This document shows positions 32,583 to 45,701 of a DNA stretch of 64,000 nt, one piece after another (the first letter of the stretch is position 1; each line of letters opens with the position of its first letter). The notes below the pieces were generated by a model, which had not been told where the DNA came from, did not search any database, and saw only the letters and a program-made list of their open reading frames with translations. Source of the DNA: Nitrosopumilus sp. (GTDB lineage: Bacteria > Desulfobacterota > Binatia > UBA1149 > SPBQ01); assembly GCA_964225545.1 (NCBI GenBank), contig CAXQPB010000185.1:1781-65780 (forward strand), written 5' to 3'. The position numbers and the translations under genes were made by a program.

Positions 32583-33392
32583 TCAGTCTTCGAGCAACGT
32601 TTCGCGCAGCCTGCCGACCACAGCCTCGTCGATGCCGATCGAGTGCAGGTAGGCTTCGGGAGATCCCCAGATCCGGTCGAGCTCGTCGAGCGTCCGCTCC
32701 ATGCGTTCGGGGGGACTCGACGTAAGGTAAGCGATCGCTGCGTCGTCCATGCCCAGCCGGATCATCTCGTCCCGATACGACTCAAGGACGGACCGGAGAT
32801 TCCCCTCCGAGACCGCATAGTCCGCGATCACATCCGCCTGCGATACGCCGAGCAACCGAAGGAGAACCGCGGCTACCACACCGGTCCGATCCTTGCCCCC
32901 GGTGCAGTGGAAGACGCACGCGCCGGACTCGTCGCTGGCGAGCCAGCCGAAGATCCTGCGCATGCTTTCGCCGCCCTCGTGAAGCATCTCCACGTAGCGC
33001 TCCTGGAGTTGCAGGTTCGCCCAGTCGATCTCCGGGCTGAAAGGGCTGAGCGAAATCTGCACGAGAGGGACATGAACATGACGTCGGCCCGCGACGAAGT
33101 CGCCCGTACCGTCGTTTTCGAGCTCGCGCTCGCTGCGCAGATCAAAGACGACCTCGATTCCGAGAGGATCGAGCACGGAGCTGTCGGCCTCCCCCAGTCG
33201 ATGCAGGGCGTCAGCCCGAAACACTCTCCCCCGGACTACCCGTGCCCCGTCTGCGCCGCGATGTCCTCCGAGGTCGCGAAAGTTGCTGGCCCCTTCGAGC
33301 GGAAGCGCCTGCGAGAGCTCCGCCTGCTCGCCGGCGGGCTCTGTGCCCTCCCCTCGCCCGTGCCTGTGCCCTGTTGCCGGTTTGCGTGTCAT
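32583..33392 (-). CDS. Protein tyrosine/dual-specificity phosphatase-like protein (Y_phosphatase3-like)
   Basis: 269 aa. NFRDLGG near the N-terminus. CX5R P-loop HCTGGKDRTG. Confidence 0.8.
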   Translation of the reverse strand: MTRKPATGHRHGRGEGTEPAGEQAELSQALPLEGASNFRDLGGHRGADGARVVRGRVFRADALHRLGEADSSVLDPLGIEVVFDLRSERELENDGTGDFVAGRRHVHVPLVQISLSPFSPEIDWANLQLQERYVEMLHEGGESMRRIFGWLASDESGACVFHCTGGKDRTGVVAAVLLRLLGVSQADVIADYAVSEGNLRSVLESYRDEMIRLGMDDAAIAYLTSSPPERMERTLDELDRIWGSPEAYLHSIGIDEAVVGRLRETLLED

Positions 33393-33482: not shown

Positions 33483-33511
33483 TTGACACCAGTCGCATCC
33501 GGGGTTAGCCT
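33483..33511 (+). promoter_or_regulatory. Candidate sigma-70 promoter for the riboswitch operon
   Basis: TTGACA (33483-33488), 17-nt spacer, TAGCCT (33506-33511). This puts the transcription start just before riboswitch helix P1. Confidence 0.5.
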
Positions 33512-33516
33512 CTGCG

Positions 33517-33641
33517 AGCCTTATCAAGAGTGGTGGAGGGATTAGGCCCTGCGAAGCCACAGCAACCGATTCGAACGGCCACGCCGCTTGAATGCCAGGT
33601 GCTAAATCCTACGCCCCGGGAAAAGGGGGTGATAGATGAGG
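33517..33641 (+). promoter_or_regulatory. SAM-I (S-box) riboswitch aptamer
   Basis: CCUUAUCAAGAGUGGUGGAGGGAUUAGGCCCUGCGAAGCCACAGCAACC...CCAGGUGCUAAAUCCUACGCC...GGUGAUAGAUGAGG. This matches the conserved S-box blocks UUAUCAAGAG-GGUGGAGGGA-GGCCC-GAAGCC-GCAACC-GGUGCUAA-UCC and the P1 closing strand. Confidence 0.9.
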
Positions 33642-33658
33642 CAGGGAACGCGGTACAG

Positions 33659-33724
33659 CCTCTTCCTTGCTCATCAATCCGGACGACCGAGTTCGGTCGA
33701 CTTGATGAGGGAAGAGGTTTTTTT
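33659..33724 (+). terminator. Intrinsic terminator (riboswitch expression platform)
   Basis: 5' arm cctcttcc(ttg)ctcatcaa 33659-33677. Inner hairpin cgaccg-agtt-cggtcg. 3' arm ttgatgagggaagagg 33702-33717. U7 tract 33718-33724. The 5' arm can instead pair with the P1 3' strand (gatgagg), giving an antiterminator. Confidence 0.85.
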
Positions 33725-34484
33725 GTACCCGATTTCGAACAGGAACGGATCGCAGGCCGCCCCTCGGGTGCTCATCGTGGGCCTCGGCGCGCTGGGCTGT
33801 CCGGCCGCGGAGACGCTGGCAGACAGCGGCTGTGTAGACCTCACGCTCGTCGACGACGACCGCGTAGAGCTTTCCAATCTCCAGCGCCAGACTCTGTTCA
33901 ACCGGGAAGACGCCGAGCGGGCGACTCCCAAGGCCATCGCCGCGGAGCAGGCTCTGTCCGGGCACGGCCAGACCCGGCGCGTCGAAGCCATCGTCGACAG
34001 AGTGACCGCGAAGAACGTCGCCCACCTGGTGAGCGAGAACGATTTCGTAATCGATGCCTGCGATAACCCGGCTACGAAACTGCTCCTCAACCGCGCCTGT
34101 GTCGCAGCGGGAACGCCGCTCGCCTACGGCGGGGTCGTGCGTACCGGCGGCCAGACAATGACGATCATCCCCGGCCGCTCCGCCTGCCTCGAATGCGCGT
34201 TCCCTGCCCTCGCAGAGGACGCCGAGACCGACGACGGAGACTCGTGCAGCCGAATGGGAATTCTTGCGCCGGTCGCGGGTGTGATCGGCTCACTGCAGGC
34301 CGTCGCGGCGCTCGAGACCCTCTCTGGCCGCAGCGATGGTGGAGAGATGCAAATCTACGACCTGACGGCGACGCACTGGCGTACCATCAGATTCGAACGG
34401 GATCCGGCTTGCGGGACCTGTGGACAGGTCGCGTCAGCGACGGACTCCGATACAGCCAGGAGGCTACCGACATGCCCTATGTAA
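33705..34484 (+). CDS. ThiF/MoeB-family E1-like adenylyltransferase lacking the N-terminal RYxRQ segment and lacking a rhodanese domain
   Basis: RVLIVGLGALGCPAAETLADSG...LVDDDRVELSNLQRQTLF...VIDACDNPATKLLLNRAC...SACLEC...GILAPVAGVIGSLQAVAALETL...PACGTCG, colinear with MoeB from about residue 33 onward. Start is uncertain: ATG 33705 lies inside the terminator 3' arm, and GTG 33768 is the next candidate. Confidence 0.85.
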   Translation: MREEVFLYPISNRNGSQAAPRVLIVGLGALGCPAAETLADSGCVDLTLVDDDRVELSNLQRQTLFNREDAERATPKAIAAEQALSGHGQTRRVEAIVDRVTAKNVAHLVSENDFVIDACDNPATKLLLNRACVAAGTPLAYGGVVRTGGQTMTIIPGRSACLECAFPALAEDAETDDGDSCSRMGILAPVAGVIGSLQAVAALETLSGRSDGGEMQIYDLTATHWRTIRFERDPACGTCGQVASATDSDTARRLPTCPM

Positions 34485-35737
34485 CCGGCATGAAATGCAG
34501 AGAGTGTGGCGAGAACTACGAGCTCGCTCCCGTCAACGTATGTGAATTCTGTTTCGGACCGCTCGAGGTTCAGTACGACTACGACTCCATTGCGGCAAGC
34601 ATCAGTCGCGAGAAGATCGAGTCACGCCCACGGAACCTCTGGCGTTACCGTGAACTCCTTCCCTGCGAAGGCGAGCCGCACATCGGGCTTTACTCGGGCT
34701 TCACCCCACTGGTCAAAGCGGACCGGCTGGCGGCGGCGCTCGGCGTCAAAGAGCTCTACGTAAAAGATGACTCCTGCAATCACCCGAGCTTCTCGTACAA
34801 AGACCGTGTGGTATCGGTCGCCATCACAAAGGCGATCGAGTTCGGATTCGATACTGTATCCTGCGCCTCGACGGGCAACCTGGCCAACTCGGTCTCCGCG
34901 CACGCGGCGCGCGCCGGGCTCCGATGTTTCATATTCATCCCCGACAATCTCGAGCGCGGCAAGGTCATCGGGTCGGGGATCTATGCACCTACGACCGTCG
35001 GCATTCGCGGCACCTACGACGATGTGAACCGGCTCTGCACGGAGATCGCCGACAAGTACCGATGGGCCTTCGTGAACATCAACCTCCGCCCCTTCTATAC
35101 CGAAGGCGCGAAGACATACGGCTATGAGGTCGCGGAGCAGCTCGGCTGGAAGCTCCCGCAGCACATCATCGTCCCGACCGCCGGTGGCACGATCCTTCCG
35201 AAGGTTGCGAGGAGTTTTGAAGAGATGGTCCGGGTCGGCCTCGTGGAGGACACGCCCTGGAAAATCTATTCTGCGCAGGCCGGCGGTTGTGCGCCTGTCG
35301 TCAACGCCCTGCACAGGGAGAGCGATCTCATCGAGCCCGTGCGGCCGGACACGATCGCGAAGTCAATCGCGATCGGCAACCCGGCAGACGGCTACTATGT
35401 CCTCGGTGCGGTACGCGGATCCGGTGGATGGGGCGACGCTGCAACCGACGAAGAGATCGTGGACGGGATCAAACTGCTCGCACGGACCGAGGGCATCTTC
35501 ACCGAGCCGGCCGGCGGCACGACGGTCGCAGTAACCAAGAAGCTGATCGAGAAAGGCCGCATACCACGAGATGAATCGATCGTGATCAGCGTGACGGGCA
35601 ACGGGTACAAAACCCTCGAAGCGGTCGCAGACAGCGTCGAACGACCGCACGTGATCGGCGCGCGACTCGGTGAGTTCGATGACCTGTACACCGGACTCGG
35701 CCCTGACGCGGGAGAACTCAATCGCGAGGTTGGCTGA
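34472..35737 (+). CDS. Threonine-synthase-like PLP enzyme (candidate MetM-type homocysteine-forming enzyme)
   Basis: 421 aa from ATG 34472 (SD ccaggagg 34457-34464). N-terminal zinc ribbon CRECG...CEFC. PLP-lysine context NHPSFSYKDR. TAGGTILP loop. The track ORF from 34193 is an upstream extension overlapping the E1 gene. Confidence 0.8.
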   Translation: MPYVTGMKCRECGENYELAPVNVCEFCFGPLEVQYDYDSIAASISREKIESRPRNLWRYRELLPCEGEPHIGLYSGFTPLVKADRLAAALGVKELYVKDDSCNHPSFSYKDRVVSVAITKAIEFGFDTVSCASTGNLANSVSAHAARAGLRCFIFIPDNLERGKVIGSGIYAPTTVGIRGTYDDVNRLCTEIADKYRWAFVNINLRPFYTEGAKTYGYEVAEQLGWKLPQHIIVPTAGGTILPKVARSFEEMVRVGLVEDTPWKIYSAQAGGCAPVVNALHRESDLIEPVRPDTIAKSIAIGNPADGYYVLGAVRGSGGWGDAATDEEIVDGIKLLARTEGIFTEPAGGTTVAVTKKLIEKGRIPRDESIVISVTGNGYKTLEAVADSVERPHVIGARLGEFDDLYTGLGPDAGELNREVG

Positions 35738-35783
35738 GCCCCTCTGCGACGAGTATAGTAAGGGACTTTTCAGGAGGATCCGG

Positions 35784-36062
35784 ATGGCAGTTCAGGTGAG
35801 AATACCGACCCCGCTGCGCAAATTCACGGACGGCCAGGAAGCCGTGCCGGCAGACGGAGCATCGATTGCGGAGGTCATCGAGGACCTCGAGGCAAAACAT
35901 CCCGGCCTCAAGGACAGGATCTGTGAGGCCGACGGCAGCGTTCGGCGCTTCGTCAATCTGTACGTCAACGGCGACGACATCCGATTCCTCGACAATCTCG
36001 GATCGGCCGTAAAGGACGGCGACGAAGTGTCGATCGTCCCGGCCATCGCAGGCGGCGCCTGA
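35784..36062 (+). CDS. MoaD/ThiS-family sulfur-carrier protein ending in GGA
   Basis: 92 aa from ATG 35784 (SD caggagga). MAVQVRIPTPLRKFTDGQ...FVNLYVNGDDIRFLDNLGSAVKDGDEVSIVPAIAGGA*. Beta-grasp carrier pattern with one residue after the diglycine. Confidence 0.85.
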   Translation: MAVQVRIPTPLRKFTDGQEAVPADGASIAEVIEDLEAKHPGLKDRICEADGSVRRFVNLYVNGDDIRFLDNLGSAVKDGDEVSIVPAIAGGA

Positions 36063-36130
36063 GCGGCCCGGCTCGCGTCGCGTCCGGCATCCGGTGCCGG
36101 TAAGCGACGTGACACCAGAGGGTACCCTCG

Positions 36131-37069
36131 ATGACCGTGGCCGCTTCGACGCAGAGAATTCCCCAGGTCCTCGATCTCATCGGTAAGACGCCGATGGTCG
36201 AGATTCGGCGGCTGCGCGGCAATACCCCGGACGGAGTGCGCCTGTACGCCAAACTCGAGGGCTTCAACCCTGCGGGTTCTGTCAAGGATCGACCCGCGTG
36301 GAACATGGTGCGGCGCGGGCTCGAGAGCGGTGAGCTCTGCCCTGGCAAGACCATCATCGACTCGACATCGGGCAACACCGGCATCGCTCTCGCGATGATC
36401 GGCGCGGCGCTGGGCTATCCGGTCGAGCTCGTAATGCCTGAGAACGTCTCGGCCGAGCGCAAACGGGTCATCTGCGCCTACGGTGCGAAGCCGATCTATT
36501 CGAGTGGACTCGAAGGTTCCGACGGCGCGCTGCTTCTGTGCAAAGAGATCCACGAGGCGAACCGCGACCGCTACTTCAAGCCAAACCAGTATTACAACGA
36601 GGCCAATCCCGAAGCGCATTACCTGACGACCGGGCCGGAGATCTGGCACCAGACCGAGGGCAGGGTCACGCACTTCATAGCCACACTCGGCACCGGCGGC
36701 ACGGCGATGGGCACCGGCAGGTTTCTCAAGGATCAGCGTCGCGATGTCCAGATCATCGGCGTGGAGCCTGACGATGCGTTTCACGGCATCGAGGGCCTGA
36801 AGCACATGGAGAGTTCGATCGTCCCCGGCATCTACCACGAGGATGAGCTGGACGTGAAGCTCGGGATCTCGACCGAGGAGGCCTACGACATGGTCCATCG
36901 ACTCGCCAGCGAGGAAGGCCTGATGGTCGGCCAATCGAGCGGCGCGGCGCTGGTGGCTGCGCACCGGGTAGCATCCGAGCTGGAACAGGGGTGCGTGGTC
37001 ATGATTTTCTGCGACTTCGGAGATCGTTATCTTTCGACGAATCTCTGGACGGGTTTCGGCAATCTCTGA
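36131..37069 (+). CDS. CysK/CysM-family PLP-dependent sulfhydrylase (cysteine synthase-like)
   Basis: 312 aa. IGKTPMVEI. PLP lysine in NPAGSVKDRPA. STSGNTG. LGTGGTAMG. SSGAAL. Confidence 0.88.
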   Translation: MTVAASTQRIPQVLDLIGKTPMVEIRRLRGNTPDGVRLYAKLEGFNPAGSVKDRPAWNMVRRGLESGELCPGKTIIDSTSGNTGIALAMIGAALGYPVELVMPENVSAERKRVICAYGAKPIYSSGLEGSDGALLLCKEIHEANRDRYFKPNQYYNEANPEAHYLTTGPEIWHQTEGRVTHFIATLGTGGTAMGTGRFLKDQRRDVQIIGVEPDDAFHGIEGLKHMESSIVPGIYHEDELDVKLGISTEEAYDMVHRLASEEGLMVGQSSGAALVAAHRVASELEQGCVVMIFCDFGDRYLSTNLWTGFGNL

Positions 37070-37085
37070 GTGGAGGTCGGCGAGT

Positions 37086-37325
37086 ATGGCGACACAACGT
37101 TTCTATCTCACGTACAGCGAAGAGAAGATCAAAGAGCCGATCATCTACCACGTCACCAAAAAGTTTGACGTGGTCACCAACATCCGGGCGGCTTCGATCT
37201 CTGACCATATCGGGATCGTCGCTCTCGAACTCGACGGCGAAGAGAGCGTGATCCTCGAGGCCGTGCGCTGGATCGCCGCTCAGGGCGTGAAAGTCGAGCC
37301 GATCCAGAAGAACGTCATCGAATAG
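37086..37325 (+). CDS. Stand-alone NIL-domain protein
   Basis: 79 aa. YLTYSEEKIKEPIIYHVTKKFDVVTNIRAASISDHIGIVALELDGEESVILEAVRWIAAQGVKVEPI resembles the NIL domain at the C-terminus of the MetN methionine-import ATPase. Confidence 0.7.
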   Translation: MATQRFYLTYSEEKIKEPIIYHVTKKFDVVTNIRAASISDHIGIVALELDGEESVILEAVRWIAAQGVKVEPIQKNVIE

Positions 37326-37366
37326 ATCACCCGCGAGAGCACGTGAGAACGCAGCCGCCAGGGGCT

Positions 37367-37918
37367 ATGCGAAGCCGAACGGCGTCGTTGACTGACGCCG
37401 AGATCGATCTGTACGCACGCCAGATCATCGTACCGGGCGTGGGCGCCGCAGGTCAGCTGCGGCTGTTGTCCTCGCCGGTTTATTTTCCGGGTCAGAGCGC
37501 AGACGCCCGGCTCGGTCGCCGCTACGCAGCAGCGGCGGGGATGCCGATTGTCCACAACGCTCAGGCCGCGACGCTCGCCATTGTGAGCCTGTGTCAGACC
37601 GAGCCTCTCGATATGATCGCGAGAATGATCGAATCGCGCACGGACTCGACGGCAGCCTCCAATCTGTCACAGATGCCGATCGTGCTTTACGGCGCGGAGC
37701 ACCTGCCGCGGCCTCGGATCGTTTGCGGCGCCGAGCAGCTCCACGCTGTGCGACGAAACTGTACGCCCCCCACTTCCACGCGTCCATCCGCGCATCTCAA
37801 CGCTGCCGCATGCGCTGCCGCAGGCACAGCGACGGCATTGATTCTCGGCTGGCGGGCGGCAGAGGGTTTCGGCGCAGACGGCCCGCGCCCTGTACGCCCC
37901 GCACGGTCCAATGGATAG
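37367..37918 (+). CDS. Degenerate E1-like (ThiF/MoeB-like) protein retaining the N-terminal YARQ segment but lacking the nucleotide-binding Gly loop
   Basis: SLTDAEIDLYARQIIVPGVGAAGQLRLLSSPVYFPG aligns by eye with MoeB LSDQEMLRYNRQIILRGFDFDGQEALKDSRVLIVG, but GxGxxG is replaced by YFPGQS. The C-terminal AAAGTATALILGW resembles the GviGslQA helix. Its stop overlaps the next start (ATGGATAG). ATG 37367 preferred over GTG 37343. Confidence 0.6.
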   Translation: MRSRTASLTDAEIDLYARQIIVPGVGAAGQLRLLSSPVYFPGQSADARLGRRYAAAAGMPIVHNAQAATLAIVSLCQTEPLDMIARMIESRTDSTAASNLSQMPIVLYGAEHLPRPRIVCGAEQLHAVRRNCTPPTSTRPSAHLNAAACAAAGTATALILGWRAAEGFGADGPRPVRPARSNG

Positions 37919-39215
37919 CCCCGTCCATCTCAAGGTCGAGCTGGCGATCAGCGGGCTGCGGCTGGCTCCAGAGCTCGCGGCCGAGCCCGCGCTGTTTACC
38001 GGTCTCCCGAGCCCGGCGGTCTCCGGCGGCGACGTTGAGCTGTTGCTCGCCGATGACGTGATCGCGCGCTGCCCTGTCAGCACGTCATCGGCTCGGCACT
38101 CACCGTACGAGCTGCGAACGGAAAACGACCGCTTCTATGTTGCCCAGATCGACTCCTCGGGCGCGATCACCGAGCAGGTGGGCGTAGACGTGATCGCGCC
38201 GCCCGCGTTCCTGGGAAACCGGACATCCCGGGGCACAGCGATGAACGAGATCGGCGCGGTGCACGCCGGTTACGTATCGATCGATCTGTCGGACGGCTGC
38301 GGTTTCGCTGAGTCTGGCAACCGCTGCAGATTGTGCAGATTGCGAACGGAACCTGTACCCGACTCCACGCGGGTCGGGCCACCGGCGGTCGATGACGTCC
38401 TCGAGGTGATCGGGGCTGCGTTTGCCGAGGGAGCAGCCGAGTTCGTGTACTTCGACATCGGTTTTCCCGGAACTCCCGACAGGGAGGCGGACGGAAGCGA
38501 CGCGCACGATCCGGAGGACGGCGGTTTCAGCGTGATCGAACCTTACCTGAGCGCGGTCAAGCGTGAGTTTGACACCCTCGTCGCCGTAAAGAGTCACCCG
38601 CCCGGCGATCACCGGTGGATCGACCGGACCTATGCAGCCGGAGTCGATGCGCTCAGTTACGCGATCTATATCCACGACGAGAAGAGACTTGCTGAGACCT
38701 GTCCGGGGCGCGCGAATCGGATGCCGCAAGAGCGTTACTACGAAGCGCTCGAGTATGCGGCACGCATCTTCCCCAGCGGAACGGTCTGGAGCGACCTCCT
38801 GATCGGAATGGAGAGGGAGGAATCAACCCGAGACGGCATTGACCGACTGACGGGGATGGGAGTACTGCCAATCCTGTCACTGCGTCCTTCCCTTGATGTC
38901 GCAGCGTCGAACGATGACGCGACCGATCACGAGCGCGTCTCGATCGAGCCGGAGAAGATCGCACCGCTGTACGCTCACCTGTATCAGACCGTGCGCGAAG
39001 CACGGATCAACGTCCAGCATATGCGCGATCTCGGATACGCCATCACCACGATGGAAGCTCGCTTTTTTGCGGGTGAAGATGCAAAACTGATCGTCGCGGT
39101 GAACGGCTTTTATCGCTCGCGCCTGGGCAGTCGCGCGGTGCGAGGACTGTCGAAACTCCGCCGTCGACTTCGAGTGCGCAGGGTTCGGGAATCGTTCGAT
39201 TCCTCTCAACTCTGA
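37911..39215 (+). CDS. Uncharacterised radical-SAM-like protein with a CX8CX2C motif
   Basis: 434 aa. VHAGYVSIDLSDGCGFAESGNRCRLC (Cys130/139/142, nt 38298-38336). Later TIM-barrel-like pattern (AGVDALSYAIYIHDEKRL...RYYEALEYAARIFPSGTVWSDLLIGMEREESTRDGIDRLTGMGVLPI). Basic C-terminal tail. Family not recognised. Confidence 0.5.
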   Translation: MDSPVHLKVELAISGLRLAPELAAEPALFTGLPSPAVSGGDVELLLADDVIARCPVSTSSARHSPYELRTENDRFYVAQIDSSGAITEQVGVDVIAPPAFLGNRTSRGTAMNEIGAVHAGYVSIDLSDGCGFAESGNRCRLCRLRTEPVPDSTRVGPPAVDDVLEVIGAAFAEGAAEFVYFDIGFPGTPDREADGSDAHDPEDGGFSVIEPYLSAVKREFDTLVAVKSHPPGDHRWIDRTYAAGVDALSYAIYIHDEKRLAETCPGRANRMPQERYYEALEYAARIFPSGTVWSDLLIGMEREESTRDGIDRLTGMGVLPILSLRPSLDVAASNDDATDHERVSIEPEKIAPLYAHLYQTVREARINVQHMRDLGYAITTMEARFFAGEDAKLIVAVNGFYRSRLGSRAVRGLSKLRRRLRVRRVRESFDSSQL

Positions 39216-39331
39216 ACCCGGACGGCAGGCAAAGCGCAGCCACGTTGAACGGCATGAACTCGAAGCGGAGCGAATACGTTCTTCCTGCACGAGCGGAAGA
39301 GTGCGACGTGAGACAGCGCGTGTAACCGAAA

Positions 39332-40753
39332 ATGGACGTCGTAGTTGACACCCGCCCACTCTGGGTCGTCGTTCTCTCACGGTCGACCCGCCTCCTGCGT
39401 CTGCTCATCGGCGTTGCCGCGTTCTGGGCGATCTGGTCCATGGAAACCCCGGCAGGACTGACTGTCGAGGGGCAGAAGGCTCTGGCGGTGTTCGCGCTGT
39501 CCGTCAGTTATTGGGTGCTCAATGCCCTGCCCCTGATGATCACGAGCCTGGTGGCGATAGCACTGATCGCACTCACGGGCGTGATGACTTCCGAGCAGGC
39601 CTACTCCCTGTTCGGAAACTCGGCGGTGTTCTTCATTCTCGGGGCGTTCATTCTGGCCGCCTGCCTGATGAAATCCGGGCTCTCGACCCGACTGACCCTG
39701 GTGTTTCTCAAGCGCTTCGGTCAGACGCCACGCTCCCTCCTCGTCGCGGTATTCCTGCTGAACGCGTTCATGTCTTTCTGGATGTCTGAACATGCGGTCG
39801 CGGCGATGAACTTTCCCATTGTGGCAGAGATTGTCGCCGTGCTGGGGCTGCGCCCCTTCCGCCACTCGTACGGCAAAGCTCTGTTTGTGGCGCTGGCGTG
39901 GGGATCGACGATCGGCGGGGTTGCGACTTTGTTGGGCGGTGGCCGTGCTCCACTCGCGATCGCGGTACTCGCAGAGGTCACCGGCAGTCAGCCCTTCGAT
40001 TTTCTCAGCTGGTCGCTGCATGCGCTGCCGACCGTATTCATCATGCTCGCCATCGGATATTTCGTCATCTCGCGATGGTTCCCGATCGATATCGACAGCG
40101 TGTCCCAAGCCGAAGAGGTTCTGGCGGAGCGCGTCGCCAGCCTTGGAAAAATGAGCTACGAGGAGAAGGGCATCGCCGCGATCATGCTCGTAACCGTCGC
40201 GGTGTGGGTCTTTTTCGGGCATGAACTCGGTCTCGCGAACGTCGCAATCATGGCGGTAGTAACGTTGTTCGCGCTTCGTCTCGTCGCATGGCGCGACGTC
40301 GAGGAGTACGTCAACTGGGGAATCATCCTGATGTACGGTGGCGCAATCTGTCTGGGCAAAGCGCTCGATGCATCCGGGGCCGCGTCGTGGATGGCCGAGA
40401 GGTCAATCGGGCTGTGGGTGCATTCGCCGACTGCGGTGGTCGCATCCCTTTCGTTTACGACCTGGCTCCTCACCGAGGCGATGAGCAACTCCGCCGTCGT
40501 CGCGCTGATGATGCCGGTCGGACTCGGTGTCGCCCGCGATGCCGGGTTGCAGCTGGCCACCATCGCTCCGACGATCGCGATCCCCGCTGGCTTCGCCTTC
40601 GCCTTCCCCATCGGCACGCCGGCCAACGCGATCGCTTACAGCTCGGGCTATCTCAAACTGCGCGACCTGATCATTCCGGGGATGTTGCTCGGGCTGATGG
40701 CGTGGCTGACCTTCAACCTTACAGCCGCCCTGTACTGGCCGCTCATTCAGTAA
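39332..40753 (+). CDS. DASS/SLC13-family anion:cation symporter
   Basis: 473 aa, polytopic. Hairpin-tip motifs WMSEHAVAAMNFPI and TEAMSNSAVVALMMPV. FAFPIGTPANAIAYSSGYL. Confidence 0.8.
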   Translation: MDVVVDTRPLWVVVLSRSTRLLRLLIGVAAFWAIWSMETPAGLTVEGQKALAVFALSVSYWVLNALPLMITSLVAIALIALTGVMTSEQAYSLFGNSAVFFILGAFILAACLMKSGLSTRLTLVFLKRFGQTPRSLLVAVFLLNAFMSFWMSEHAVAAMNFPIVAEIVAVLGLRPFRHSYGKALFVALAWGSTIGGVATLLGGGRAPLAIAVLAEVTGSQPFDFLSWSLHALPTVFIMLAIGYFVISRWFPIDIDSVSQAEEVLAERVASLGKMSYEEKGIAAIMLVTVAVWVFFGHELGLANVAIMAVVTLFALRLVAWRDVEEYVNWGIILMYGGAICLGKALDASGAASWMAERSIGLWVHSPTAVVASLSFTTWLLTEAMSNSAVVALMMPVGLGVARDAGLQLATIAPTIAIPAGFAFAFPIGTPANAIAYSSGYLKLRDLIIPGMLLGLMAWLTFNLTAALYWPLIQ

Positions 40754-40900: not shown

Positions 40901-41215
40901 TCAGACCGCAGCCGCGGGTGGAGCGAAGCGAACCTCGTAGCCGAACACTGCCGTGAGCAGATAATAAACCGCCATCAACGCCGCTACCGTCGTCACCATG
41001 GCACCTACGGCAACTCCCGACAGCATCACAACGCTCACCACGCCGGCCGCAGCCACGATCGGAGTCAGGACCGAGGAGCGGTTGAAGGGGTCGACGGGCG
41101 TGACGAGCGACGCCAGACCGCCATCCCGGGCCTCTCTATCGAGCGCATCAAACAGCCCGCGCATCTGCTCGTTCATGGACGTCCAGGCGCCGTCAAAGTC
41201 GAAATTCCAGTCCAT
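40901..41215 (-). CDS. Hypothetical small membrane protein (last gene of the ECF operon)
   Basis: 104 aa. Acidic soluble N-half (MDWNFDFDGAWTSMNEQMRGLFDALDRE) and two hydrophobic segments at the C-terminus. Starts 3 nt after the upstream gene. Confidence 0.55.
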   Translation of the reverse strand: MDWNFDFDGAWTSMNEQMRGLFDALDREARDGGLASLVTPVDPFNRSSVLTPIVAAAGVVSVVMLSGVAVGAMVTTVAALMAVYYLLTAVFGYEVRFAPPAAAV

Positions 41216-41217
41216 CC

Positions 41218-41754
41218 CTACTCTCCTCCCGTCTTCAAGGTTTCAAAGGATTCGATTGCCGGCTGCGACGGCGCTCGAATACTGACGATAATCGTGCCTG
41301 CGTCGGTCCTGCTGCTGCGGAGCAGCAGGTTCGCGTTACGGCTGAGCTTCACGTCCGCGTTGAGGACCGGTCGGTTATCCTGAATCAGGAGCAGTCTCAT
41401 TTTGAAGTGCCCCGGAGTGCTCTCCGTTGTCTTCATCTGCAGGTATCCGCCGTCGGGCAGCTCCATCCCGCACTGGGCTCCCGCCCTGAACGGACACGCC
41501 TCTATGTGGAGCAGATCGTAACGCTTGAACGGGAACCCTCGCAGCTGGGGTTTGAGATCCTTGAGCCGAGGATCGAGTCCACGTCCCTCTTTTGACGCCA
41601 GCACGGCAGCAACCTGGACGATGGACGTCTGGCTGTTTTGAACTTCGGCGCTCGGGTCGGCCCGCGAAAGGTCGGGCGAGCAGACGTAGCCGATACAGAG
41701 GATACCGATACCGGCTGCACACACCCTTCGAAATCTGGTTGCGAGCCGTTCCAT
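41218..41754 (-). CDS. Hypothetical exported protein (ECF operon)
   Basis: 178 aa. N-terminal signal-like segment RRVCAAGIGILCIGYVCS. No family recognised. Starts 4 nt after the anti-sigma gene. Confidence 0.55.
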   Translation of the reverse strand: MERLATRFRRVCAAGIGILCIGYVCSPDLSRADPSAEVQNSQTSIVQVAAVLASKEGRGLDPRLKDLKPQLRGFPFKRYDLLHIEACPFRAGAQCGMELPDGGYLQMKTTESTPGHFKMRLLLIQDNRPVLNADVKLSRNANLLLRSSRTDAGTIIVSIRAPSQPAIESFETLKTGGE

Positions 41755-41757
41755 TCG

Positions 41758-42402
41758 TCAGCGTCCCTTAGCTGCGGTGTTGCTCACGCCGAAAGCCCCA
41801 TTGGACGATTCGTCCAAGCTGTTGACCCAGATCACCTGCGTTCGCGTTTTGGGTCGTGCCCAGACCGCAACGGTTCTGCCCTGGGCAACTTCCATGGTGT
41901 CGATTCGCACGGCCTTGCCGCGCTGCTCCGCGGGCGCGGCACTGCCTCCACTCACGGCTTTCGCAATCTTTTCCTGGAAGGAGCCGACTCCGGGTATCTC
42001 GAAACCGCCGAACAGCATGAAGGCAAGGGCTGCAGCGGCAGCGGCGAAAGCTCCCGCCCGGAACGGGGAAGGACCGAAAAGTCCTGCCACCAGTCGGCCC
42101 AACAACGAAACATCGTCGCTCGACTGTTCAACCATTCGTCGGCGCGGTCTGGCTGCAGGTGCGAGGCCGCCTTCTTCATCCAGTCGCGATTCGATCGATT
42201 GCCATAGACCTGTGAGGTCTACCGCGGCCGCCTTGTCGGCCACTGTCGATCTGAGCAACGCCGACGCATATTGGTGGTTCGTGGCCAGAGAGTGGCAAGA
42301 GTTACACGCCTGTACGTGCTCGGCCGCAGACGCCATCTGCCCGTCCGGCATCTCTGCGTCGACATAACGGTCGATGTTCTCTTCGAAGTCTCGACAGTCC
42401 AC
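41758..42402 (-). CDS. Anti-sigma factor (zf-HC2 type)
   Basis: 214 aa. MDCRDFEENIDRYVDAEM...AAEHVQACNSCH (H-X3-C-X2-C). Central TM (AGAFAAAAAALAFMLFGGF). Confidence 0.85.
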   Translation of the reverse strand: MDCRDFEENIDRYVDAEMPDGQMASAAEHVQACNSCHSLATNHQYASALLRSTVADKAAAVDLTGLWQSIESRLDEEGGLAPAARPRRRMVEQSSDDVSLLGRLVAGLFGPSPFRAGAFAAAAAALAFMLFGGFEIPGVGSFQEKIAKAVSGGSAAPAEQRGKAVRIDTMEVAQGRTVAVWARPKTRTQVIWVNSLDESSNGAFGVSNTAAKGR

Positions 42403-42405
42403 GGT

Positions 42406-42975
42406 TCAGACCAGCTCCCTGAGCCTCGTTTGCAGCTTCTTTCTGGCGTAGTGGAGCCTGCTCATGACAGTTCCGAGGGAGCAGTCGAGGGTCTGGCTGA
42501 TCTCCTCGTAGGAGAGTCCGTCGACCTCGCGCAAAAGTATGACCGCCCGATGATCTGGCGTCAAATCACCTATGGCCTCGAAAATCTTCGATCCGAGCTC
42601 ACGGCTACGCACAGCGTCGAACGGATCTTCACCTTGCGTTTTTCCTCCGAATGCCATCGTCGCGTCGCCCGGCGGCAGGCTCTCGTCATATTCGACGTTC
42701 GTTCGCTTGCTTTCCTTTCGTTGTAAATCGATCGAAAGGTTGAAAGCGATCCGATACAGCCAGGTGTAAAACGACGAATCGCCCTTGAAACCATCGAGAT
42801 TGCGGAAAGCGCGCACAAACGTCTCCTGCACCACCTCTCTGGCGTCCTCCGCGTTGCGAACCATACCGACCGCTACACCCAGAATCCGGCGCTGGTAGCG
42901 TTCTGCCAGCGCCTGGAGGGCTTCACGGTCGCCGGTTCTACCGCGCGCGACCAGCTCAGCGTCCGACAGATCCAC
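42406..42975 (-). CDS. ECF (group 4) RNA polymerase sigma factor
   Basis: 189 aa. Region 2 (AEDAREVVQETFVRAFRNLDGFKGDSSFYTWLYRIAFNLSID) and region 4 (REVDGLSYEEISQTLDCSLGTVMSRLHYARKKL). Confidence 0.92.
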   Translation of the reverse strand: MDLSDAELVARGRTGDREALQALAERYQRRILGVAVGMVRNAEDAREVVQETFVRAFRNLDGFKGDSSFYTWLYRIAFNLSIDLQRKESKRTNVEYDESLPPGDATMAFGGKTQGEDPFDAVRSRELGSKIFEAIGDLTPDHRAVILLREVDGLSYEEISQTLDCSLGTVMSRLHYARKKLQTRLRELV

Positions 42976-43043
42976 CCAGCATGCTCCATGCCAGTACTGA
43001 TTGACGCACGGCCGATTGGTTTATTCGGGAGATATTCGAGCCC

Positions 43044-45701
43044 CTAGTGAGCTTCCGCCCAGTTTTTTCCCATGCCGATATCGACGACGACTGGGACCTC
43101 GAGGGAGACGGCCGACTCCATGGCGCGACGGGTCAGCCGTTCGGCCGCCTCCACCTCGGCCTTGGGGCACTCGAGCAGAAGCTCATCGTGAATCTGCAAA
43201 ACCATTGCACTTTCGAGGCCTTCCGCTTCGAGGTCGTGGTAGAGATTGACCATGGCGAGCTTGATGATATCCGCCGCGCTACCCTGGATCGGGGTATTCG
43301 TCGCCACCCGCTCGGCCAGCTGCCGACGCCCGCCATGGTCACTGTCGATGTCGGGGAGATACCTGCGCCTGCCCATCAGCGTGGCGACATAGCCGTGGCG
43401 TCGCGCGTGCTCACGCATCTGTTCATAAAATTTACTCACGCCCGAGTACCGCTTGAAGTAGCGTTCGATATACTTGGCGGCTTCATCCCGTGTAATTTTG
43501 AGTTCACGCGCCATCCGAACGGCCCCCATCCCGTAGATGATGCCGTAGTTGATCACCTTCGCATGCCGGCGCATCTCGGCCGTCACATCTGAGGGGTCGA
43601 GTCCCTCGACCTCCGCGGCAGTCGCCGTATGGATATCTTCCCCCTTCTGAAACGACTCGCACAACGTCGCGTCTTTGGAGAGGTGAGCCAGCACACGAAG
43701 CTCGATCTGGTTGTAGTCAGCCGACAGCAGAACCTTACCCCGCGCTGTTCCGAAGGCCTTGCGGATCTGGGCCCCGTCGCTGGTTCGGATCGGAATGTTC
43801 TGGAGGTTCGGGTCGTTGGAGCTGAGCCTTCCCGTCGCGGTGACAGTCTGATTCAGGCTCGTATGAATCCGATCTTTACTGTCGACCAGCTTCGGGAGCT
43901 GATCGACATACGTCGATCGCAGCTTGGCCAGCCCGCGGTAGTCGAGAATCAGCGCCGGCAGCTCATGATGCTCTGACAGCGCCTCAAGCGTGTCGCTGTC
44001 GGTGGACAGGCCGGTCTTGGTCTTCTTCACCCCTCGTGTCGGCAACGACAGACGCTCGAACAACACCTGGCGCAGCTGGACCGGAGACAGGATATTGAAC
44101 TCGGTACCGGCCGCCGCGTAAATACGCCCGACCAGTTCCTTCATGCGCCTGCCGAACTCATCGGAGAGCTTAGCCAGCAATCCGACGTCGAGACGGATTC
44201 CTCGCGACTCGATGTCGGCGAGGACACCGAGCAGCGGCAGCTCGAGATCGGCATACAAAGCGGTCTGCTCATGATCGGTCAGCCGCTCACGCATCAGCGG
44301 TATCAACCGCTCCACCTGTTCGAGACTGGCGGCCATCGATGCCGCGAACGGGCCCGGCGCCGCCGCGGCTTCCTTGAGGAAACGATCCGCGACCCCCGCG
44401 AAGTCGTGCGCCCCCGCGGACGAATCGAACAGATAGGAGGCGAGCCCGATGTCGATCGACAGAGCGCCCGGCTTCGCGCCGTGCTCCCTGCAAAGTCGCT
44501 TGAGGTCAAAGCCCGAGGGCGAGCCGCCTGCCTGCGCGCACGCTTTTGCGAACTTCGTGATCTCGACGGCGCCGCCGGCCAGCGCACGGCTTCCGGCGAC
44601 GCTTATCGCCAACCGCGGCTGCTCGTCCGCGTCGCCGTAAAGGACGAATGCAACCTCGCCGCTCAGGTCGAGCTTGTCCCAGGTGACAGGAAAGATGTCA
44701 TCAGGCTCTTCCGGTGCCGGAGCTGCAGAATCGGCAGCCGCAGCCGGCGCGCTCGTGCCGCCTCCGTCATCGCTCGTCCTTGCCGGCGACGCTGCTTCGC
44801 CGCTTTCCGCATCGCCGAGCGCGGCGCGGATGCGCGCGGCGAAGTTCACCATCTCCAGTTCCTCTGCGAGACTGACGAGCTCCTCGGTGTGCGGGCTGTC
44901 AAAGCGAAGATCTTCGAGATCGAGGTCGACCGGAGCGTCGACACAAACCGTAGCGAGTTTCTTCGACAACAGCGCGGCGTCCCTGCCCTCCTCGACCTTC
45001 TTTCGAACCCCCCTGGCACCGCGGATCGGCAGACTCTCGATCTCCTCGATGCGCTCGAGCATAGCCGCCATCGAACCGAAATGGCCGATGAGCGCCGCCG
45101 CAGTCTTCGGACCGACCCCGCGCACCCCCGGAATGTTGTCCGTCGAGTCGCCCATCAGGCCCTGGACGTCTGTGACAGCTCCCGGCGGAACACCGAACTT
45201 CTCGATCACCTCGGGCTCCCGGACGCGCTTGTTCTTGCCGGGGTCGTAGAGCGAGACGCGCTCGTTCACGCACTGCATGAGATCCTTGTCACCGGTCACG
45301 ATGACAACGTCGGCGGCCTGTGAGGAGAGGCGGTGCGCGAGCGTCGCCAGGAGGTCGTCGGCCTCGTACTCCTGGATACGGACGGCAGGGATCGCCATCG
45401 CTCTGACCAGGCGCTCGACGAGCGGGAACTGAACCTTCAGATCCTCATCCGGATCGTCGCGGTTCGCTTTGTAGTCCGGATAGATCTCGTTGCGGAAGGT
45501 ATCGCCCGGGCTGTCGAAGCAGGCTGCGATGTAGCGCGCCCCGTTTACCCGGACCAGCTTGTCCAGCATGTTCGCGACGCCATGAACCGCGTTGGTAGGC
45601 ACCCCCTCGGACGTATTGAGGGGGGGCAACGCGTGGTATGCGCGAAAGGTGAAGTAGCTGACGTCCAGCAGATAGACCGTCTTCCCATCACTCGCCGGCA
45701 T
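43044..45701 (-). CDS. polA: DNA polymerase I
   Basis: 885 aa. 5' nuclease domain (VYLLDVSYFTFRAYHA...GVRGVGPKTAAAL). Polymerase motifs (LLSADYNQIELRVLAH; RRHAKVINYGIIYG; LQIHDELLLE). Confidence 0.97.
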   Translation of the reverse strand: MPASDGKTVYLLDVSYFTFRAYHALPPLNTSEGVPTNAVHGVANMLDKLVRVNGARYIAACFDSPGDTFRNEIYPDYKANRDDPDEDLKVQFPLVERLVRAMAIPAVRIQEYEADDLLATLAHRLSSQAADVVIVTGDKDLMQCVNERVSLYDPGKNKRVREPEVIEKFGVPPGAVTDVQGLMGDSTDNIPGVRGVGPKTAAALIGHFGSMAAMLERIEEIESLPIRGARGVRKKVEEGRDAALLSKKLATVCVDAPVDLDLEDLRFDSPHTEELVSLAEELEMVNFAARIRAALGDAESGEAASPARTSDDGGGTSAPAAAADSAAPAPEEPDDIFPVTWDKLDLSGEVAFVLYGDADEQPRLAISVAGSRALAGGAVEITKFAKACAQAGGSPSGFDLKRLCREHGAKPGALSIDIGLASYLFDSSAGAHDFAGVADRFLKEAAAAPGPFAASMAASLEQVERLIPLMRERLTDHEQTALYADLELPLLGVLADIESRGIRLDVGLLAKLSDEFGRRMKELVGRIYAAAGTEFNILSPVQLRQVLFERLSLPTRGVKKTKTGLSTDSDTLEALSEHHELPALILDYRGLAKLRSTYVDQLPKLVDSKDRIHTSLNQTVTATGRLSSNDPNLQNIPIRTSDGAQIRKAFGTARGKVLLSADYNQIELRVLAHLSKDATLCESFQKGEDIHTATAAEVEGLDPSDVTAEMRRHAKVINYGIIYGMGAVRMARELKITRDEAAKYIERYFKRYSGVSKFYEQMREHARRHGYVATLMGRRRYLPDIDSDHGGRRQLAERVATNTPIQGSAADIIKLAMVNLYHDLEAEGLESAMVLQIHDELLLECPKAEVEAAERLTRRAMESAVSLEVPVVVDIGMGKNWAEAH

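Follow-up and report, generated by a model that had tools for sequence, protein, structure and literature searches.

A 64,000-nucleotide (nt) stretch of contig CAXQPB010000185.1 (assembly GCA_964225545.1, GTDB class Binatia), hereafter the window, contains eight consecutive genes, g1 to g8, behind an S-adenosylmethionine (SAM) riboswitch, and it is fairly probable that they constitute a SAM-repressed protein-thiocarboxylate route in which a single small sulfur-carrier protein (g3) serves the synthesis of both homocysteine (by g2) and cysteine (by g4). This reading is carried by the identities of the genes, the conservation of their order, the linkage of the riboswitch to g2, the complementary losses in two E1-like genes (g1 and g6), and the linkage and fusion of a radical-SAM-fold protein (g7) with an anion transporter of the DASS family (g8), all of which were observed directly. 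To our knowledge, protein-thiocarboxylate routes to cysteine or homocysteine are known from few organisms, and automatic annotation usually misses them. The operon probably spans the whole way from uptake of a sulfur oxyanion to homocysteine and cysteine, because ATP sulfurylase is encoded right after the transporter in about half of the Binatia loci.

In the mechanism that we propose, high SAM would lead the aptamer to close helix P1, the terminator would form, and transcription would halt before g1. At low SAM, the carrier g3 would lose its C-terminal Ala to a putative peptidase, and its C-terminus would be adenylated by g1 and then converted to a thiocarboxylate; here g1 would give the ATP site and the catalytic residues, and its dead paralogue g6 the N-terminal helix with the arginine finger. 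Like MetM, g2 would turn O-phosphohomoserine and the carrier thiocarboxylate into homocysteine, and g4 would turn O-phosphoserine or O-acetylserine into cysteine in the manner of CysO/CysM, whereas g5, a NIL-domain protein, would serve the homocysteine branch, where it might bind a ligand or have a regulatory part. Finally, g7 and g8 would make up a separate, mobile two-gene module, in which g8 imports a divalent sulfur oxyanion (sulfate or thiosulfate) and g7, as a [4Fe-4S]-type protein, docks on the permease by a basic tail and either processes the imported sulfur for the carrier machinery or regulates the permease. The asymmetric E1, the link between NIL and methionine, and the g7-DASS module are put forward as open hypotheses.

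The eight open reading frames (ORFs) lie on the forward strand between 33636 and 40753, and the junctions from g1 to g8 are −13, +46, +68, +16, +41, −8 and +116 nt. An earlier note, made from the sequence alone, had described seven packed same-strand genes with junctions running from −13 to −8 nt and a DASS transporter gene after a further 116 nt, and all of this was confirmed; the families it had assigned to the seven products agree with the Pfam, NCBIfam and profile matches given below. A comparison of gene neighbourhoods, which it had suggested, was made on a species-level sample, in which one genome per species was scanned by way of g7 homologues, resulting in 50 Binatia loci; the g7 homologues found by this search came nearly all from metagenome-assembled genomes of Candidatus Binatia. 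Gene order was mapped by tblastn with the eight proteins of the window, and the denominator of 43 used hereafter refers to loci in which the sequence upstream of g7 extends over 4.4 kb or more (individual loci and cluster representatives are cited by their L and P numbers). The same order was observed in about 50 species-level Binatia loci, and its recurrence in 43 related loci is not due to chance: g3 and g4 are present in all 43, g1 in 42, g2 in 34 and g5 in 28, and g6 was located in 47 loci by motif search. The transporter gene g8 directly follows g7 in 42 of 47 loci (median gap 42 nt, minimum 3 nt) and is part of the transcription unit, so that the place and distance which the earlier note had given for it stand, but its treatment as a mere neighbour does not. 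On the downstream side, a reverse-strand block at 40901–45701, encoding two small proteins without a family hit, a putative anti-sigma factor, an extracytoplasmic function (ECF) sigma factor and DNA polymerase I (polA), is likewise syntenic in 34–38 Binatia loci, which means that the operon has a constant place in the chromosome of Binatia. All-against-all clustering of the flanking ORFs, which is noisy in GC-rich DNA, returned inherited synteny only and no extra sulfur genes upstream. Since conserved order is partly inherited, the informative signal is which genes are gained and lost together.

The leader of the operon bears a SAM-I riboswitch aptamer (RF00162; 33518–33642, forward strand), which matches the full length of the Rfam covariance model (positions 1–108) with 81.4 bits against a gathering score of 44.4 (E = 1.2e-17). 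It is followed by an intrinsic terminator, part of the expression platform (33658–33724, forward strand), which consists of a hairpin at about 33658–33717 and seven U at 33718–33724, with a hairpin energy of −45 kcal/mol and a z-score of −4.95 against shuffles. A simple terminator scan missed it because the loop contains a nested hairpin. Once the 3′ arm is omitted, the 5′ arm of the terminator pairs with the 3′ strand of P1 (about 33635–33648), forming an antiterminator of −29 kcal/mol. The leader is thereby predicted to be a classic S-box off-switch with a mutually exclusive terminator and antiterminator, the evidence for on/off switching being RNA structure prediction. Both the SAM-I riboswitch and the terminator ahead of the genes, as the earlier note had placed them, were borne out by the covariance model and by the U7 hairpin. 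Upstream of the aptamer, a candidate promoter (33483–33510, forward strand) was read by eye and is offered as an inference: it has a perfect −35 hexamer TTGACA (33483–33488), a 16-nt spacer and a weak −10 hexamer TTAGCC (33505–33510). The −35 hexamer coincides with position 33483, from which the earlier note had started the unit, and a consensus promoter scan made no call at 33483–33510. Divergently upstream of the riboswitch lies the gene of a Y_phosphatase3-family protein tyrosine phosphatase (32583–33392, reverse strand, E = 2.5e-58), which is found at the same position in only about 13 related loci.

The occurrence of the riboswitch follows that of g2. By nhmmer and Rfam, it was detected in 32 of the 34 loci with g2 and in none of the nine loci without it (Fisher p = 1e-7), the 32 riboswitches of these related Binatia loci being homologous aptamers upstream of g1. 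On a neighbour-joining tree of g4, g7 and g8, the loci without g2 are scattered over three or more separate places, and therefore the association between riboswitch and g2 rests on more than one event. At two loci the ThrC-like gene is kept and no SAM riboswitch was detected even at E up to 1 (L019:5200–6300 and L024:5200–6200); both of them are also without the NIL gene. The proposal of the earlier note that control by SAM points to methionine supply is strengthened by this distribution.

The product of g2 (34472–35737, forward strand) is a pyridoxal 5′-phosphate (PLP) enzyme of the ThrC family (PALP E = 4e-61; thrC TIGR00260, 271 bits) with an N-terminal CxxC...CxxC zinc ribbon, and with identities of 67–85% across Binatia loci it is the most conserved protein of the operon. 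It is a candidate MetM-type homocysteine synthase that would use the carrier thiocarboxylate. MetM is a ThrC homologue, often misannotated, that uses the thiocarboxylate of MetO together with O-phosphohomoserine (GapMind 2026 preprint), and metM of Streptomyces albulus has a SAM riboswitch upstream (PMC12172450). A homologue search with g2 gave only sequences at least 77% identical, nearly all from Binatia, and did not reach Streptomyces. The closest informative relative outside Binatia is a ThrC-like protein of Nonomuraea gerenzanensis, 52% identical to g2 over 403 amino acids, whose gene lies behind a SAM riboswitch (68.7 bits) and is followed after 24 nt by that of a 91-amino-acid ThiS-like protein with a GG end and 44% identity to g3. 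The ThrC-like protein of L055 is 57% identical to g2, whereas identity does not exceed 38% for annotated thrC genes that share the zinc-ribbon architecture. The g2/g3 pair is thus supported as MetM/MetO-like, in agreement with the earlier note, this likeness being measured against the Nonomuraea locus and not against S. albulus MetM itself. The Nonomuraea locus (L051) lies on an 11.85-Mb record (NZ_LT559118.1) that is filed as a plasmid and is evidently the chromosome; it has three places with ThrC-like genes, of which one alone is linked to a riboswitch and a carrier.

The distribution of g5 (37086–37325, forward strand), which encodes a stand-alone NIL-domain protein of 79 amino acids (PF09383, E = 7e-14, 51.9 bits against a gathering score of 24), also follows g2: among the 43 loci, 28 have both genes, six have g2 only, nine have neither, and none has NIL only. 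In other lineages, a NIL gene is found in ThrC-like clusters as well, adjoining the ThrC-like gene in L055 and after ThiS in L061. NIL has earlier been tied to homocysteine synthesis through the methanogen NIL-ferredoxin protein MA1822, and g5 may be an accessory of the ThrC-like branch, which we leave as an open hypothesis.

The carrier g3 (35784–36062, forward strand) is of the ThiS/MoaD type (ThiS PF02597, E = 1e-17; NF041918, 64 bits). Its C-terminus reads ...IVPAIAGG-A and therefore extends one residue past the di-glycine, leaving no free Gly-Gly; among 47 orthologue C-termini, 17 end in GG and the others in GG plus 1–5 residues. With such a tail beyond GG, a trimming peptidase is needed. 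The gene directly behind it, g4 (36131–37069, forward strand), encodes a PLP cysteine synthase of the CysM type, similar to O-acetylserine sulfhydrylase B (PALP E = 3e-72; cysM TIGR01138, 377 bits, below the cut-off of 394). Since g4 adjoins the carrier gene in 43 of 43 loci, and the two genes even overlap in L057 and L063, its product is a candidate user of the carrier thiocarboxylate. A GLKHM motif in g4 is invariant in 47 of 48 sequences. The layout of a ThrC-like and a CysM-like enzyme with a single carrier occurs outside Binatia in L055 and L061, and there it comes with a JAMM peptidase.

The product of g7 (37911–39215, forward strand) is a radical-SAM-fold protein that scores 127 bits in NF045502 ('variant_rSAM') against a cut-off of 125; Pfam PF04055 does not match g7 of the window, yet it matches many of its homologues. 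Its cysteines C130, C139 and C142 form a CX8CX2C triad, which departs from the canonical CX3CX2C and is invariant in all 29 aligned sequences (the window and 28 homologues, all or nearly all of Binatia type). The protein has a beta-rich N-terminal domain and a conserved basic C-terminal tail, LRRRLRVRRV..SFDSSQL. Its AlphaFold2 (AF2) model has a pLDDT of 78, and the top Foldseek matches are all radical SAM enzymes, at TM scores of 0.3–0.4 and none of them close. Proteins with CX8CX2C make up megaclusters 4-6-x of RadicalSAM.org, which are uncharacterised and have no assigned function. An HMMER search with g7 resulted in 1865 cluster representatives (301 at E below 1e-30), which include a fusion of g7 with DASS (P0299) and a fusion of a Prok-JAB peptidase domain with g7 (P0271). 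The basic tail LRRxLRV is common to all DASS-linked members and lies, in the fusion protein, just before the first membrane segment. Adjacency and fusion link g7 with the transporter and not with the carrier. All three cysteines are missing from the g7 homologues of L053, where the order is Sat-g7-DASS, and of L055, and the full triad is missing in 17 of 46 tail-bearing representatives; since the triad is lost in some homologues, radical or redox chemistry cannot be the universal role of the family. We know of no member of the g7 family with a known reaction.

Two assignments for g7 were tried and rejected, namely a sulfite reductase, set aside as the leading idea because it has no siroheme domain and some homologues have no cysteines, and a JAMM fold in the N-terminal domain, because there is no invariant His and the JAB domain of P0271 is additional to this domain. 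In three distant relatives (P0363, P0376 and P0373, E about 1e-43), an ATP-grasp domain is fused to the N-terminus, and another distant relative, P0343, which belongs to the core of NF045502, adjoins an EamA-family transporter gene (L060). At L056:8011–10233, a g7 homologue with both triad and tail is encoded with no DASS or carrier gene; the gene of an MtgC/MtbC-like corrinoid protein lies divergent to it, and the surroundings (BamD, NadD, polA) resemble those of Binatia.

It is possible, though we lean against it, that g7 is a catalytic Fe-S enzyme of sulfur reduction or transfer, and this could take two forms. In the first, g7 would replace CysH and cleave adenosine 5′-phosphosulfate (APS) or its 3′-phosphorylated form (PAPS) by means of the adenosine pocket of radical SAM proteins; in the second, a [4Fe-4S] cluster held by the three cysteines would bind sulfide or the sulfane sulfur of thiosulfate and deliver it to the adenylated carrier or to TusA. 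The invariance of the triad in Binatia, the fold and the membership in NF045502 all suit a radical SAM enzyme, and g7 is found with a permease, sat and sometimes cysC, with no APS/PAPS reductase or sulfite reductase gene noticed in any cluster. This set resembles the cysH-cysP-sat-cysC operon of Bacillus subtilis, g7 taking the place of cysH. TusA is encoded directly upstream of g7 homologues in L054, L061 and L062, and in L052 the JAB::g7 fusion adjoins a protein resembling phosphatases of 3′-phosphoadenosine 5′-phosphate (pAp). The latter is a truncated PHP-family protein (L052:2465–3007) whose best match is the model of 3′,5′-nucleoside bisphosphate (pAp) phosphatase (165 bits), which hints at PAPS-linked chemistry. 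On the other hand, homologues in the same context (L053, L055) are without the three cysteines and more than a third of the tail-bearing representatives are without the full triad, L061 already encodes an AprA/AprB-like APS reductase beside g7, no siroheme enzyme is present for the six-electron step, and such an activity has no biochemical precedent.

A second view, which we hold to be rather unlikely, is that g7 has no catalytic role and, as a cytoplasmic subunit of the DASS permease, gates or regulates it, perhaps by sensing SAM or an adenosine nucleotide, in the way that the NIL domains of MetN throttle methionine import. The pairing of g7 with DASS is the most conserved link across lineages and exists as a fusion, the basic tail stands just ahead of the first transmembrane segment in that fusion, triad-less variants retain both tail and adjacency, and the EamA neighbour of the distant relative shows pairing with a different type of transporter. 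Against this, the triad, the fold and a GxIxGxxE-like motif are strictly kept in Binatia, which suggests cofactor-dependent chemistry; the homologue in L056 has no transporter nearby, and no regulatory radical-SAM-fold subunit is known.

The E1 of the operon is split between g1 and g6, as the earlier note had claimed, and at the level of sequence the split is real. The catalytic ThiF/MoeB-type adenylyltransferase is g1 (33705–34484, forward strand, start uncertain; ThiF PF00899, E = 2e-61, 207 bits). Its ORF opens at 33636, and the candidate starts are ATG 33705, TTG 33723 and GTG 33768; the true start must lie in or after the terminator rather than at 33636, and a conserved 'EEVFLY' in g1 orthologues is terminator RNA read as protein. 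Only the ThiF domain was matched in g1, with no rhodanese domain. Aligned to ThiF, g1 retains GxGxxG, the Arg and Lys that bind ATP, DxxDN, a pair of zinc CxxC motifs and the Cys of the crossover loop. However, it aligns with residues 29–245 of ThiF and 32–249 of MoeB, and its PF00899 match begins at profile position 22, so that the N-terminal RYxRQ arginine-finger helix (about the first 28 residues), with the finger residues ThiF R11 and MoeB R14, is missing from g1 of the window and of all of about 45 orthologues. The converse loss is seen in g6 (37367–37918, forward strand, alternative start GTG 37343). It has no Pfam hit, nothing useful having been obtained for g6 or g7 even at E up to 10, and its weak NCBIfam match covers the MoeB N-terminus only. 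A profile of 44 g6 orthologues matches ThiF from residue 2-3 (E = 1e-35) and MoeB (E = 7e-30), indicating homology over the whole fold. R18, Q19, G26, Q30 and G58 are invariant, giving the motif RY(S/A)RQ...G..GQ, whereas a segment equivalent to about 61–105 of ThiF, which holds the ATP-binding Arg and Lys, is deleted and DxxDN is not conserved. The two E1 genes of a more distant cluster (L057) show complementary losses of the same kind. L061, whose ThrC-like/ThiS/NIL/ThiF/CysM set includes no g6, serves as a natural control: there the E1 has its full length and bears an RYSRH helix of its own.

The arginine fingers ThiF R11 and MoeB R14 reach into the ATP site of the neighbouring subunit, and in the ThiF-family heterodimer Tcd1-Tcd2 of yeast a degenerate subunit donates the finger (PMC13139853). 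Because of these precedents, the complementary losses and the L061 control, our analysis suggests that g1 and g6 form an asymmetric two-gene E1 heterodimer, which would have originated by duplication and complementary loss. We consider it doubtful that g6 is instead a dead E1-like docking adaptor holding the C-terminal tail of the carrier for g7, like the E1-like domains of cyanobactin and other TOMM heterocyclases that hold the peptide for YcaO, with g1 acting as a finger-less homodimer. In favour of such an adaptor, the stop codon of g6 overlaps or abuts the start of g7 in most loci; elsewhere a JAB domain, likewise a binder of carrier tails, takes the position of g6 or forms a fusion with the g7 homologue; and MoeB and ThiF are reported to work without the finger, which is absent from E. 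coli TcdA (PMC13139853). The top Foldseek matches of g6 are also the inactive E1-like domains of LynD and TruD, but these matches are weak (all E above 5e-3), and the AF2 model (pLDDT 66) was built from the six proteins that a single-sequence homologue search returned, so that it serves as corroboration only. Moreover, the losses are complementary, the N-terminal helix being missing from g1 alone and retained, with the invariant RQ, in g6 alone; the full-length E1 of the g6-less cluster is not accounted for by a simple adaptor; and g7 homologues occur without a nearby carrier gene (L053, L054, L056).

The last gene of the unit in the window, g8 (39332–40753, forward strand), encodes a DASS (SLC13-type) anion transporter (Na_sulph_symp PF00939, E = 5e-58, 198 bits; TIGR00785, 254 bits against a cut-off of 199). 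It matches the structures of VcINDY and SLC13 proteins at E = 1e-35, a comparison with the PDB that cannot separate sulfate from carboxylate carriers. The tip of its first hairpin is Ser-Glu-His (SEH) in 44 of 47 loci and that of the second is Ser-Asn-Ser. VcINDY-type carboxylate carriers have Ser-Asn-Thr (SNT) at the first tip, and SEH may point to another substrate or coupling ion. In four Binatia loci (L035, L037, L040, L041) ATP sulfurylase stands in place of DASS, and in about 21 further ones it follows DASS on the same strand, often behind a Usp-like protein of about 157 amino acids; L012 additionally carries APS kinase, and no gene of an APS/PAPS or sulfite reductase was noticed among the Binatia clusters. 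Because of the linkage to ATP sulfurylase, the APS kinase and the SEH tip, g8 is a probable importer of a sulfur oxyanion, sulfate or thiosulfate.

In other lineages, the gene contexts of g7 homologues are as follows: ThiF, ThiS (ending GGAA), JAB::g7 and the PHP phosphatase (L052); Rrf2, ATP sulfurylase, g7 and DASS (L053); TusA, g7 and DASS (L054, L062); ThrC-like, NIL, CysM, JAB, ThiS, g7, DASS and Usp (L055); ThiF, ThiS, CysM, degenerate E1, g7, DASS, Usp-like protein and ATP sulfurylase (L057–59, L063–64). The cluster of L061 (1–15361, about 15 kb) starts with ThrC-like, ThiS, NIL, ThiF, CysM, JAB, DsrE/DsrH genes, TusA and lipoate-protein genes, and continues with TusA, g7, DASS, Usp, an AprA-like flavoprotein, ferredoxin and ATP sulfurylase. 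In total it holds six DsrE/DsrH genes, two TusA genes, genes of a GcvH-like lipoate-binding protein and an LplA-like protein, and two radical SAM (LipS-like) genes, and looks like a link of sHdr-type sulfur oxidation accessories with the assimilation of sulfur into amino acids.

It is improbable that g8 is unconnected with sulfur and imports a di- or tricarboxylate, e.g. a carbon skeleton like malate or acids related to aspartate. The DASS members of known structure are mostly carboxylate carriers, and the substrate is not readable from sequence. Nevertheless, in about 25 loci g8 is either followed by ATP sulfurylase or replaced with it, clusters of other lineages further contain APS kinase, an AprAB-like pair, TusA and DsrE, Na+/sulfate carriers such as SLC13A1 belong to the family, and the SEH tip differs from the SNT of carboxylate carriers. 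Very improbable is the last alternative, that g2 is an ordinary threonine synthase standing by chance in a cysteine operon, with the carrier serving CysM only or another thio-cofactor pathway: g2 does pass TIGR00260 well above its cut-off of 167, its best solved relatives are true threonine synthases and databases name its orthologues threonine synthase, but MetM is reported to be routinely misannotated as ThrC (GapMind 2026), the SAM riboswitch tracks g2, the 52–57% identity comes with a carrier-linked layout common to other phyla (two loci with NIL, one with a riboswitch), and the nine Binatia species without g2 in the operon must still make threonine.

The thiocarboxylate route from one carrier to both amino acids has to be weighed against the following points. 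No JAMM gene (motif HxH..S..D) was detected in the window or within 10 kb in the 50 loci, the only match of the motif search being an unrelated tyrosine-phosphatase gene. The best solved relatives of g4 are the CysM proteins of E. coli and Salmonella (250 bits), and the carrier-independent E. coli enzyme is thus a nearer match to it than the CysM of M. tuberculosis (206 bits). In place of the E. coli CysM residue R210, which we take to be equivalent to the O-phosphoserine-binding R220 of M. tuberculosis CysM, g4 has Lys and not Arg in 47 of 48 sequences. The substrates of g4 can therefore not be read from its sequence. The window contains neither sat nor an APS kinase gene. The synteny is observed inside one bacterial class, includes the polA and ECF-sigma neighbours and is partly inherited. 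The assignment of g2 was made from the locus and its relatives. Regarding the heterodimeric E1, g1 might act alone if the finger is dispensable in it as in MoeB and ThiF, g6 is translationally coupled to g7 and not to g1, and its holding the position of JAB fits a g6-g7 partnership equally. Regarding g7, homologues without the triad keep their adjacency to DASS. Lastly, all substrates, the g1-g6 complex and the role of g7 are inferred.

We found no description of this gene combination in the searchable literature, in line with the earlier note, which was aware of none. The kind of pathway is already known, whereas two of its components, the divided bacterial E1 and the radical-SAM-fold protein linked to the permease, could each prove to be new. 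A bolder reading, which we regard as unlikely, is that g7 and g8 are an unrecognised sulfur-acquisition device, in which g7 would pass imported sulfur to a ThiS-type carrier via an E1-like or JAMM adaptor, or to TusA, thereby feeding carrier-based cysteine and homocysteine synthesis with a heterodimeric bacterial E1. If the route proposed here is true, a single carrier would serve both amino acids under one SAM switch across the uncultured phylum-level lineage Binatia and beyond, and the prediction of sulfur and methionine prototrophy from such genomes would change. A bacterial E1 would be divisible into an active and an inactive subunit, providing a simple model for the origin of the asymmetric eukaryotic E1s; the CX8CX2C, NF045502-related radical-SAM-fold family would gain a testable context, an anion permease and sulfur metabolism; and NIL-domain proteins would be tied to homocysteine synthesis in a second, unrelated pathway.

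Among known systems, MetM/MetO of Streptomyces albulus (credited to Hasebe et al. 2024; GapMind 2026, PMC12172450) has the ThrC homologue beside a ThiS/MoaD-type carrier behind a SAM riboswitch in common with the window. In contrast to that system, the carrier of the window also adjoins a CysM-type enzyme, its E1 is encoded in the operon, is split in two genes and is without a rhodanese domain, unlike MoeZ, no Mec-type peptidase is encoded nearby, and the operon further encodes a NIL protein, a radical-SAM-fold protein and a DASS permease. The helpers of MetM/MetO, the JAMM peptidase Mec and the rhodanese-bearing E1 MoeZ, were not found at the locus and could be encoded elsewhere in the genome. 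In M. tuberculosis, cysteine is made by the CysO/CysM/Mec/MoeZ pathway (related PDB entries 3DWG and 3DKI), which shares with the window a CysM-type enzyme encoded beside a ThiS-like carrier and activation by a ThiF-family E1; it differs in that g4 is nearer to E. coli CysM and has Lys at the R210 position, that there is no Mec and no rhodanese on the E1, and that the carrier needs trimming. The HcyS/HcyF/HcyD/MetY homocysteine pathway of Wolinella succinogenes was reported by Krishnamoorthy and Begley in 2011, a paper cited in PMC5764234. HcyS-Ala of Wolinella has an extra residue after GG that needs trimming, and this feature is shared with the window, as are thiocarboxylate-derived homocysteine and a tie to sulfate assimilation genes; however, the PLP enzyme of the window is ThrC-like and not MetY, no HcyD-type JAMM is encoded nearby, and no sulfite reductase is present in the cluster.

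With the radical SAM superfamily, NF045502 and megaclusters 4-6-x, g7 shares the fold, a three-Cys motif whose first spacer is enlarged, and a score slightly past the NF045502 cut-off, whereas its extra N-terminal domain, basic tail and transporter linkage, and the existence of cysteine-less members, set it apart. Thiosulfate uptake by YeeE/YeeD combines a transporter with a TusA-like protein. That system and the cysH-cysP-sat-cysC operon of B. subtilis have in common with the clusters of g7 and g8 a sulfur-oxyanion permease together with a cytoplasmic sulfur-handling protein, sat and cysC, but here the permease is a DASS protein and the cytoplasmic partner has a radical SAM fold in place of TusA or CysH. 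As for the putative g1-g6 E1, it is bacterial, would serve a sulfur carrier, and its active subunit has wholly lost the finger helix, in which it differs from the eukaryotic dimers SAE1-SAE2, APPBP1-UBA3 and Tcd1-Tcd2; its likeness to them is that one subunit is catalytic and its partner degenerate yet finger-bearing (PMC13139853).

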